Assembly (NCBI GenBank): GCA_963823555.1
Contig: CAWGMA010000001.1
Span: 1,888,001-1,952,000 of the forward strand
Length of the DNA: 64,000 nucleotides
Source: Candidatus Eiseniibacteriota bacterium
GTDB lineage: Bacteria; Eisenbacteria; RBG-16-71-46; CAVPCR01
Reading direction: 5' to 3'
Under the pieces are notes generated by a model, which worked only from the letters and a program-made list of their open reading frames with translations, did no database searches and was not told the DNA's origin. The translations under genes were made by a program, and so were the position numbers. Shown piece after piece: positions 29,028 to 31,322 of this stretch (its first letter is position 1; the number at the start of each line of letters is the position of its first letter).

Positions 29028-31322
29028 ATGCTGATGAGCGTCACCACGGAAGAGACCGTGCGCCCGATCGTGGGGACCGGAAATGGAAGCGAGATGACGG
29101 CCAATCCCCCCCTGCCGTTCGATCTGAGCGCCTTCGAGACGCCCGACAAGCCGGTGAACCAGAACGGCACCGCGAAGCTCGACCTGAAGAAGCGGATCCT
29201 GAAGACCATGGATCTCGCGCTCGCGATCACGGCCCGCGGGATCTTCAACGCGATCCAGCTCATCAACCGCCATCGTCCAAATCCGGCATTCACGCCCAAG
29301 TGGTCGGACAAGCCACTGCTCAAGTCCTGGGAGCGATCCAAGCCCACCCTCGGCTGGCCGCGCGAGACCGATTCTCTATGCCCGAAGTGCGTCCAGGAGG
29401 CGCGGGCGAAGATCCTCGCCGGCGATGAGGACTACACCATCCTCGTCAACGACAAGGTGGGTGAGATCAAGGCCCAGATCATCGAGCGCGACGGGCAGGT
29501 CTGGATGATCAAGGACTGTCCGCGCCACGGCCACTTCGAGGACCTGATGGCGATCGACTCCAAGTTCCTGGAGTGGATCGAGAAGAACTTCCCGGGCCGC
29601 GATATTCGCGCCCACAACGACGAGACCCTGCATAACCACGGTTCGAGCACCATCCAGTTCGGTCGCGGCTCGGTCCTCACCGTGGACCTCACCAATCGGT
29701 GCAACATGATGTGCGATCCGTGCTTCATGGACGCGAACCAGGTGGGGTTCGTCCACGAGCTCAACTGGGATGACATCAAGGAAATCCTGGACAACGCGAT
29801 GACCATCAAGCCGCGGCGGCAGATGTCGGTCCAGTTCTCCGGAGGCGAGCCCACGATCTCGCCGCACTTCCTCCGCGCCGTCAAGTATGCCCGGGACCTC
29901 GGCTTCAACAGCGTGCAGGCGGCCACCAACGGCATCGAATTCGCCAAGAGCAAGGACTTCGCCCACGCCGCCGCCAAGGCCGGCCTCCGCTACGCCTACC
30001 TCCAGTTCGATGGCATCGGCAACGACGCCAACAGCCATCGTCACATCGGCAACCTGTTCGACGTCAAACTCAAGGCAATCGACAACCTCTACGAGGCCGG
30101 CGTCGCCGTCATCCTGGTGATCACCGTCGTCAACGGCGTGAACAACGACCAGGTGGGACCCATCGTCCGCTTCGCTCTCGACAATCCGAAGAAGATCGCG
30201 TTCCTGGCCTTCCAGCCGGTTTCGTTCACCGGTCGCGACGAGGAGATCACCGATGATCGCCGGCTCCGCCAGCGCTACACGCTGTCGCACCTGGCCTACG
30301 ACGTGAAGGCACAGACCGGGATCGGCGAGCCGCGGCGTGACTGGTTCCCGATCTCGCTCATCGGACCCTTCTCGGCCTTCGCGGACCTGGTCCACGGACC
30401 GGGCGCCGACTGGGGACAGATGAGCTGCGGCTGCCATCCCAACTGCGGGGTGGGTACGGCGGTTCTCGTCAACAAGCAAACCAAGGAGTACGCGACCGTT
30501 CCTCAGTTCCTCGATGTCCCTTCGCTGGTCGCCGACGTCAACAAGATCACCGATGCCGGCCGCGGCAAGTGGTTCTCGAACCTCATGATGGGGCTCGCGC
30601 TGCTCAAGAACTACCGGCCCTTCTCCGCGCCGCCCAGCCTGACCCTGCTCGATCTCCTCAAGAAGTGGGACAAGTCGTTCGGGCTGACCGGGCGCGATTA
30701 CGGCTCCCTCGAGTACAAGGATGTCTGGAAGCGGCGCGAGGACCCCTGGAACTTCCTCTTTGTCGCCGGAATGTGGTTCCAGGACCTCTTCAACTACGAC
30801 TTCCGCCGGACCGAGATGTGCATCATCCCCTACGCCACCCAGAAGGGAGAGATCTCCTTCTGCGCCTACAACACCGGGCATGGCTGGCGGAACATCATCG
30901 AACACATGCACATGAACGCAACCGTCGCCCAGTGGTACAAGGAGCATGGTAAGCACGAGGTCTTCGCCGGTGGCAAGGATGTACCGCTCGAGGATTACGA
31001 GCACGCACTCGTCATCAATGCCGAGGACGCAGCACGGGTCCGCGATCGCGGGGAAGCGCCGCTGACCGCTCATGAGGAGCGGCTTGCGGCGCGCAAGGCG
31101 GCCCGTCAGGCCCAGGTCGTGCGCCAGTACTACGAGGAAGCGGTTCTCAAGAAGAAGCGCGCCGACCAGGGTGTCGTCACGTTCAAGCTCGGCGGAAATG
31201 GCCATGGCGACCACGGTGGCAATGGCAACGGTCACGGCAACGGCAACGGCAATGGCAACGGTCATGGCCAGGCCGGCGCCCCCGGCAACGGCTCGGGGGC
31301 CGAGACCCATTCCCAGAGCTAG
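29028..31322 (+). CDS. tes: Radical SAM protein, tetraether lipid synthase (Tes/GDGT-MAS, MJ0619 family)-like
   Basis: N-terminal CPKC...CPRHG metal site, DLTNRCNMMCDPCF (CxxxCxxC), VQFSGGEPT, ATNG, YLQFDG, FQPVSFTGR, HPNCG, MWFQD..NYD, CIIPYA, FCAYN; RBS AAGGAGG. Confidence 0.8.
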   Translation: MLMSVTTEETVRPIVGTGNGSEMTANPPLPFDLSAFETPDKPVNQNGTAKLDLKKRILKTMDLALAITARGIFNAIQLINRHRPNPAFTPKWSDKPLLKSWERSKPTLGWPRETDSLCPKCVQEARAKILAGDEDYTILVNDKVGEIKAQIIERDGQVWMIKDCPRHGHFEDLMAIDSKFLEWIEKNFPGRDIRAHNDETLHNHGSSTIQFGRGSVLTVDLTNRCNMMCDPCFMDANQVGFVHELNWDDIKEILDNAMTIKPRRQMSVQFSGGEPTISPHFLRAVKYARDLGFNSVQAATNGIEFAKSKDFAHAAAKAGLRYAYLQFDGIGNDANSHRHIGNLFDVKLKAIDNLYEAGVAVILVITVVNGVNNDQVGPIVRFALDNPKKIAFLAFQPVSFTGRDEEITDDRRLRQRYTLSHLAYDVKAQTGIGEPRRDWFPISLIGPFSAFADLVHGPGADWGQMSCGCHPNCGVGTAVLVNKQTKEYATVPQFLDVPSLVADVNKITDAGRGKWFSNLMMGLALLKNYRPFSAPPSLTLLDLLKKWDKSFGLTGRDYGSLEYKDVWKRREDPWNFLFVAGMWFQDLFNYDFRRTEMCIIPYATQKGEISFCAYNTGHGWRNIIEHMHMNATVAQWYKEHGKHEVFAGGKDVPLEDYEHALVINAEDAARVRDRGEAPLTAHEERLAARKAARQAQVVRQYYEEAVLKKKRADQGVVTFKLGGNGHGDHGGNGNGHGNGNGNGNGHGQAGAPGNGSGAETHSQS
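31191..31290 (+). repeat. In-frame Gly-Asn/Gly-His hexamer repeats (GGCAAC/GGCAAT) in the Tes-like C-terminal tail
   Basis: Encodes GGNGHGDHGGNGNGHGNGNGNGNGHG. Confidence 0.8.

Follow-up and report, generated by a model that had tools for sequence, protein, structure and literature searches.

Tes2, a Tes-derived radical SAM subfamily without the N-terminal iron-sulfur cluster: a candidate lipid tail-coupling enzyme in Eisenbacteria and Acidobacteriota

Which enzyme joins the chains of bacterial membrane-spanning lipids, and does the gene described here code for one? Branched GDGTs (glycerol dialkyl glycerol tetraethers; brGDGTs) serve widely as temperature and pH proxies, and the acidobacterial chain-joining step has no assigned enzyme. 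The window analyzed here, a stretch of 64,000 nucleotides (nt) from Candidatus Eiseniibacteriota bacterium (GCA_963823555.1, contig CAWGMA010000001.1, positions 1,888,001 to 1,952,000 of the forward strand; host genome G000, 4.6 Mb), contains an open reading frame of 764 codons (29028 to 31322, forward strand), with the G+C content of its surroundings, which an earlier sequence-only reading had taken for a radical SAM (S-adenosylmethionine) gene of the tetraether lipid synthase (Tes) type. The protein belongs to a separate subfamily, here called Tes2, and the same genome also codes for a canonical Tes (tes1). With a probability of roughly 60%, Tes2 would couple lipid tails as Tes does, using three cofactors where Tes has four. 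We favor this reading because the fold matches that of the archaeal enzyme GDGT-MAS (7TOM), the residues C473, M582, C598, Y602, and C612 (counted from the ATG at 29028) are invariant, and the subfamily is nested in Tes.

GDGT-MAS has four metal sites, namely, a rubredoxin iron (C9, C12, C33, H36), an N-terminal cluster, [Fe4S4]N (C73, C77, C80, and a His), the radical SAM cluster, and a C-terminal cluster, [Fe4S4]C. The first two are at the surface, while in the last one Met439 is labile, the substrate radical is parked on the cluster, and Tyr459 is directed toward the chain end (Lloyd et al. 2022, PMC9433317). Among solved structures, only GDGT-MAS 7TOL is close (E value of 2.7e-65; chain numbers offset by a 20-residue tag). 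All the motifs listed in the sequence-only reading are present in the translation, far beyond chance (C118-x2-C121...C164-x2-H167, C225-x3-C229-x2-C232, FQPVSFTGR, HPNCG, MWFQD, and CIIPY...FCAYN). Aligned to 7TOL, C164 and H167 pair with C33 and H36 of the Methanocaldococcus jannaschii enzyme, C225, C229, and C232 also map, and so do C473, M582, C598, Y602, and C612, leaving the C-terminal cluster ligands, a point that reading had proposed to check, intact.

The same reading had claimed the full Tes-type layout, and here it failed. The [Fe4S4]N ligands of GDGT-MAS align to residues ~190 to 212 of Tes2, a cysteine-free loop, and the best NCBIfam match, the Tes model NF045702, gives 315 bits for a cut-off of 450. 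Four close Tes2 homologues score 313 to 326 bits against this model, and the TrsS model NF045646 covers the N-terminal half only (217 bits; cut-off, 490). In Pfam, we identified Radical_SAM at residues 221 to 383 and the zinc ribbon PF23545 at 111 to 175. By sequence, Tes2 falls outside the NF045702 equivalog, as it lacks two defining features, the [Fe4S4]N ligands and a score above the cut-off. The earlier wording, that of an orthologue of canonical Tes having all its cofactors, is thus very improbable: all the listed motifs are present, but it is contradicted at the sequence level by the missing cysteines, the low score, and the separate clade, and identity to Methanomassiliicoccales Tes is 34% for the window protein versus 48% for Tes1.

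The loss of the cluster is common to the whole subfamily. In a family alignment of 105 members, 47 rows of which are the Tes2 clade, CxxxCxxCxxH is absent from 47/47 Tes2 rows, and the five residues around the C-terminal cluster are kept in all of them; from this conservation, we infer that C473, C598, and C612 are the cluster ligands. In the loop that replaces [Fe4S4]N, H204 is found in 47/47 rows, H202 in 46/47, and H196 and D198 in the core group, and this His/Asp loop may be a replacement metal site. As far as the alignment goes, the part doing the coupling chemistry is retained in Tes2, although the claim of a full layout is wrong. Loss of the N cluster probably happened more than once, because one protein (P0275) passes NF045702 (584 bits) without the N-cluster motif. 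Three degenerate relatives (P0178, P0189, and P0220) have neither the N motif nor the C-cluster ligands, and two distant Bacteroidota plasmid "Tes homologues" have the N motif and no C ligands.

An AlphaFold2 model built from 120 sequences (pLDDT, 85.7; pTM, 0.83) matches 7TOL/7TOM in Foldseek (E value of 6e-36, TM of 0.87 by target, 28 to 29% identity) and 7TOM in VIA-align (Z of 44.6, rmsd [root mean square deviation] of 2.4 A, 477/498 residues), the next entry having a Z of 20.4. The helices of the lipid-pocket region are present in the model and align to those of GDGT-MAS. An ESM Atlas search returned only the subfamily's own clusters, and a plasmid search returned only distant relatives (7 records, <33% identity).

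In the tree (IQ-TREE, LG+C20+F+G4, 45 of the 105 sequences, 504 columns including those of the N loop; FastTree, run on 101 rows, gives the same picture), Tes2 forms a single clade (100/100) with a position within bacterial canonical Tes (100/97); the latter groups with Thermoplasmata Tes (100/97), and a Thorarchaeota Tes lies further out. The Tes2 stem is long. The tree set holds no characterized enzymes, two Bacteroidota plasmid proteins form the outgroup, on long branches, and three basal rows are without a taxon label. The window protein groups with those of a same-genus genome (G001), of G003, and of a Gemmatimonadota member (97/97), among acidobacterial sequences. A position outside the Tes clade, which would have spoken against the earlier assignment, was thus not found in this set of sequences. 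"Tes-like" stands as a statement of ancestry, given the fold and the nesting, and has to be dropped in the sense of a standard Tes, as the subfamily is separate, long branched, and without one cluster. In its mechanism, Tes2 would be like Tes.

What Tes2 might make is suggested by its distribution. Cultured Terriglobia and Blastocatellia make iso-diabolic acid, and the literature calls the enzyme responsible unidentified (PMC13159169). In our counts, each of which includes the seed genome (a completeness filter of 93 to 95% was requested), 120 of the 121 Terriglobia genomes have a match, and 117/121 have a Tes2 with a best E value of <1e-187, whereas canonical Tes is found in 15/121, in 13 of these beside Tes2. 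Blastocatellia, here the class of a Pyrinomonadaceae genome, code for Tes2 in 79/81 genomes (in three, the gene is divided between contigs or frames) and for a canonical-type protein in 2/81. In Thermoanaerobaculia, a class name taken from one EF-Tu record, 59/81 genomes have no match and 3/81 have a canonical-type one, and the cultured member had no iso-diabolic acid (PMC13159169, Table S21). One further class has full-length matches to a related sub-branch in 23/54 genomes. Over the whole phylum Acidobacteriota, 178/301 genomes match, ~140 with the Tes2 type by hand count (including the unpublished genome G068). Outside the phylum, Tes2 is present in 5/5 genomes of the host's order and in 0/36 other genomes of its class, 5 of which have a canonical-type match. 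In Gemmatimonadota, 15/81 match with core Tes2 in the seed only, yet records of this phylum are among the closest matches. A second Tes2 sub-branch, with ~52% identity, occurs beside the core copy in many Terriglobia and Blastocatellia (L101, L203 to L206) and is a candidate for chain- or condition-specific variants.

If it does couple tails, Tes2 most probably provides Acidobacteria with their iso-diabolic acid lipids, because it is near-universal in the producing classes, where canonical Tes is rare and Mss is absent, and because most Thermoanaerobaculia have no match and the cultured one has no product. The absence of mss in Acidobacteria was reported by Sahonero-Canavesi et al. (2022, PMC13159169), the discoverers of Mss, who concluded that there is another pathway. 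According to their Table S21, with its columns read from their pattern, Tes reaches >=30% identity in 3/14 producers of iso-diabolic acid. The table lists no Tes for Terriglobus roseus or Chloracidobacterium thermophilum, yet both appear in the looser list of Zeng et al. (2022, PMC8941075). This is as expected if a borderline subfamily fell under the 30% cut-off, where Tes2 indeed sits (28 to 32% identity to 7TOL/7TOM). Holophaga, Geothrix, and Thermoanaerobaculum have 0 entries in the accessible supplement of Zeng et al., a weak sign, as that list is clustered.

A brGDGT role for bacterial Tes homologues has already been published: Zeng et al., who listed 456 of them, proposed it, and Halamka et al. 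(PMC10087280) named two Solibacter Tes homologues as candidates for brGDGT condensation. According to PMC13023045 and PMC13274423, Chen et al. (2025, Geochim Cosmochim Acta) drew a link between Tes and the iso-diabolic tetraesters of Koribacter, a genus with several homologues; their paper may already discuss the paralogs. Related literature includes bioRxiv 2022.04.07.487437, PMC12042123, and PMC12816986. What is new here is the splitting of bacterial Tes homologues into two subfamilies, with Tes2 near-universal in the producing classes and canonical Tes rare. We found no open-access paper that separates a cluster-less Tes subfamily or ties one to iso-diabolic acid, in a search that left most geochemistry journals outside, and searching the literature for the locus tags returned nothing. 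We also considered a role in hopanoid metabolism, which does not agree with the distribution, as Tes2 is found in 79/81 Blastocatellia and most strains of this class have no hopanoids (PMC5462960).

Several observations weigh against tail coupling by Tes2 or against its link to iso-diabolic acid. Solibacter, which carries a probable Tes2, had no detectable iso-diabolic acid after hydrolysis (PMC10087280), and reviews and surveys of 2025 and 2026 describe the activity of bacterial Tes as unconfirmed (PMC13459092, PMC11868695). The classes compared are related and so are not independent tests; they are also few, and the matching is at the level of classes rather than strains. A related sub-branch (58 to 61% identity) is carried by 19/81 Thermoanaerobaculia (including G068), and Tes2 is patchy, at 46/81 genomes, in a class that is probably Vicinamibacteria, a name reached by elimination only. 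Across 83 Tes2 loci, no lipid gene is a conserved neighbor. Last, the Tes2 stem is long (0.67 + 0.43 changes per site), and the protein has gained large extensions at both termini, as would be expected had its function changed.

This stem and the added domains would also suit an enzyme that acts on membrane lipids by other radical chemistry, such as desaturation, ring closure, cross-linking in mid-chain, or a further step on lipids that another enzyme has already joined. Tes2 is kept beside canonical Tes in the host, in G001, and in the 13 Terriglobia mentioned above, which suggests different jobs for the two proteins, and the further duplicated sub-branches point the same way. We consider such a function unlikely, since Tes2 is the sole Tes-family gene in most Terriglobia and Blastocatellia, so that a third enzyme would be needed for the coupling, and since the equivalents of Met439 and Tyr459 at the chain-end site are invariant.

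Within the host, tes2 can be tied to tes1, because one upstream element is unique to the two genes. This 46-bp element has 2 sites in the 4.6-Mb genome at <=13 substitutions of 46, one 5' of tes2 and the other, with 11 mismatches, 90 to 135 nt 5' of tes1 in the same orientation. Gapless counterparts lie 5' of both tes genes of G001 and, in G002 and G004, 5' of the radical SAM-tes2 operon (in G003, by eye), and none was matched 5' of acidobacterial tes2 loci. A short core pattern with two mismatches gives 1 to 2 chance-level matches per genome (reverse control, 0 to 3); as the pattern was built from these copies, it is position and not count that provides the evidence. The arrangement suggests that tes1 and tes2 are under shared control. 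A sigma-54 promoter was rejected, as the GG...GC spacing exceeds the consensus by one base and the tes2 copies do not conserve it. A sigma-70 scan and Rfam each gave 0 matches on the element.

Among the open reading frames clustered within ~6 kb of the 83 Tes2 loci, there is no conserved neighbor, only lineage-specific ones. A radical SAM protein of ~400 amino acids (aa) is coded directly 5' of tes2 in G002, G003, and G004 and in 13/83 neighborhoods in all (L093:143-1429, L105:7173-8387, L227); its host homologue, 43% identical, is on another contig (G000:C2:105644-106612). In 21 to 23 of the 83 loci (Pyrinomonadaceae, L014 to L082), the 3' genes are, from the look of their sequences, presumably surE-, pcm-, and dedA-like. 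One small apparent protein family, seen by eye, adjoins tes1 (L001 ~11500-12069) and tes2 in 6 acidobacterial loci (L035:5085-5474).

The radical SAM neighbor and the lack of lipid neighbors, together with a very high conservation (62 to 77% across classes and phyla), would fit the recruitment of Tes2 to a nonlipid substrate (a cofactor, peptide, or small molecule); the gene would then have a class-level housekeeping role and overlap with iso-diabolic acid through shared ancestry. This appears improbable to us. The whole C-terminal lipid-binding half of GDGT-MAS is matched in the predicted structure, the upstream element is shared with tes1, and the relatives that did degenerate, without the C cluster, look different.

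The host genome itself, in agreement with the sequence-only reading, seems suited to membrane-spanning ether lipids, with a canonical Tes and PlsA/Ger-like genes at two loci. A tblastn search identified one other family member, tes1 (C1:2165367-2167256, reverse strand, 629 aa; L001:9368-11257), 34% identical to Tes2 and ~250 kb away from it, which keeps CxxxCxxCxxH and reaches 575 bits against NF045702. On its 3' side, the PlsA/Ger architecture is seen in frameshifted pieces, which carry BcrAD_BadFG and DUF2229 domains, and G001 has the same gene order, also broken. A benzoyl-CoA (coenzyme A) reductase-like operon flanks the tes1 locus, in the same order in G001. Arguably, this locus is the stronger brGDGT candidate of the genome. 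The membrane-spanning lipid role proposed for the window gene keeps the support of the fold, the tree, the C-cluster ligands, and the host lipid genes and loses that of a standard Tes, which is the other paralog.

A second PlsA/Ger-like gene (C1:1698098-1702604, reverse strand; L173) has two BcrAD_BadFG domains and a DUF2229 domain, split over three frames. A cluster ~20 kb from tes1 (C1:2187230-2197550; L178, L183) codes for a fatty acyl-CoA reductase, a 642-aa protein, a HAD phosphatase, a membrane protein, a zinc dehydrogenase, a Lar_N protein, and a kinase-like protein and could make fatty alcohols or ether lipids. Of ger and elbD, which the earlier reading proposed to look for along with mss and grsAB, ger is represented by the two PlsA/Ger-like loci, and a fused ElbD is not among the candidates, as the strong PF07993 match is a stand-alone fatty acyl-CoA reductase rather than the fused ElbD of PMC9131029. 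Among the 17 of 33 radical SAM matches that were scanned, with no Mss or Grs query sequence in use, none hit an NCBIfam model named Mss or GrsA/B; of the host radical SAM matches, three have B12-binding domains and two are TIGR03960-like. For branched-chain fatty acid supply, there are two E1 dehydrogenase genes of undecided type, and a genome motif scan for FabH gave no match with a motif too strict to count. The host proposed earlier, a Fibrobacteres-Chlorobi-Bacteroidetes (FCB)-like organism, is reasonable by one gene, as an EF-Tu 88% identical to that of the host clusters with a Ca. Eiseniibacteriota record, followed by Zixibacteria at 83 to 84%.

The features of the locus are collected in Table 1. 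The true start of tes2 is probably the second ATG, because the ribosome-binding site is 8 nt from it and 2 nt from the first one (29028), and because only the second is retained in G001. GNGHGNGN-type disordered tails end both paralogs (window 31200-31319; L001 ~9520-9570) and are common in acidobacterial Tes2. The cydAB genes are 3' of tes2 in G001 too, hinting at a micro-oxic lifestyle.

Table 1 Features of the tes2 locus (window positions)
Feature	Position	Strand	Evidence
Conserved upstream element, promoter/operator-like, common to tes1	28623..28668	+	genome pattern search
Ribosome-binding site, 8 nt 5' of ATG 29034	29019..29025	+	sequence; conserved in G001
tes2, Tes/GDGT-MAS-derived radical SAM enzyme, probably 762 aa	29034..31322	+	sequence, profile, structure model
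N-terminal extension without GDGT-MAS counterpart; first 40 residues disordered, long predicted helix 53-80, conserved PxFTPKWSDKPLLKSW	29034..29351	+	alignment, model
Rubredoxin-like site C118, C121, C164, H167 with 22-residue insert	29379..29528	+	alignment; PF23545
Loop in place of [Fe4S4]N domain, cysteine-free; conserved H196, D198, H202, H204	29595..29663	+	alignments
Radical SAM motif C225-x3-C229-x2-C232	29700..29723	+	motif, Pfam, alignment
C-terminal auxiliary cluster region: C473, C598, C612, M582 (= Met439), Y602 (= Tyr459)	30444..30863	+	alignment to 7TOL
C-terminal extension: ~90 conserved residues, predicted helix 681-705, then disordered Gly/Asn/His tail	30915..31319	+	alignment, model
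Pterin-4a-carbinolamine dehydratase, cytochrome bd oxidase cydA, cydB; 3' neighbors, not fixed partners	31425..34260	+	no conserved neighbor across 83 loci

By analogy with GDGT-MAS, a 5'-deoxyadenosyl radical would take a hydrogen off one chain end, the chain radical would be stored on the C-terminal cluster in the form of an S-C adduct, and a second SAM would activate the second chain before the C-C bond forms. Tes2 would in this way join the terminal carbons of two membrane-lipid chains to give membrane-spanning lipids of the iso-diabolic acid type. More speculatively, the substrate could be an iso-C15 acyl (or alkyl) lipid, and the lost N cluster might have served electron transfer, bypassed in Tes2 or replaced by the His-rich loop. 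In the host, Tes2 (by cydAB) and Tes1 (by the PlsA/Ger-like and benzoyl-CoA reductase genes) could perhaps be co-regulated so as to cover more oxic and anoxic conditions, respectively.

Taken as a whole, our proposal, for which we would not quite claim even odds, is that Tes2 is the iso-diabolic acid synthase of aerobic Acidobacteria, a three-cofactor Tes derivative without the surface cluster, which screens at 30% identity overlooked and which also reached one order of Eisenbacteria and a few Gemmatimonadota. With Tes2 and Tes1 under the shared element, and with PlsA/Ger-like genes at two loci, the host would be a producer of brGDGTs outside the Acidobacteria. If true, the N-terminal cluster of Tes is dispensable, an Eisenbacteria lineage joins the list of candidate membrane-spanning lipid producers, and tes2 is a marker gene for environmental producers. 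In any case, with the subfamily split, the question of the acidobacterial coupling enzyme becomes one for a single-gene experiment, and the paralog to try first is indicated.

Among known systems, GDGT-MAS/Tes of M. jannaschii (MJ0619; 7TOL, 7TOM; NF045702) shares with Tes2 the fold, the rubredoxin site, the radical SAM cluster, the C-cluster ligands, and the Met439/Tyr459 equivalents. Tes2, which is bacterial and known from sequence and a model, differs in having no [Fe4S4]N cysteines and in its ~110 extra N-terminal and ~130 extra C-terminal residues. Acid_2410 of Solibacter usitatus (714 aa, 30.1%), one of the two brGDGT condensation candidates named above, resembles Tes2 in length and in the position of the radical SAM domain (166-330 versus 221-383, the Tes2 N terminus being ~55 residues longer) and on these grounds is probably of the same subfamily. 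Bacterial canonical Tes (the Acid_5929 type of Solibacter and Tes1 of the host) is the parent group in the tree, at 34 to 36% identity, and, unlike Tes2, keeps CxxxCxxCxxH and passes NF045702; it is patchy in Acidobacteriota. TrsS-type radical SAM proteins (NF045646) have the N-terminal half in common with Tes2, which is below their cut-off, and the two Bacteroidota plasmid examples that form the outgroup of the tree are without the C-cluster ligands. The literature gives Mss of Thermoanaerobacter ethanolicus and Thermotoga maritima as proven bacterial tail-coupling radical SAM enzymes that lead to (iso-)diabolic acid, and these belong to a different family from Tes2.

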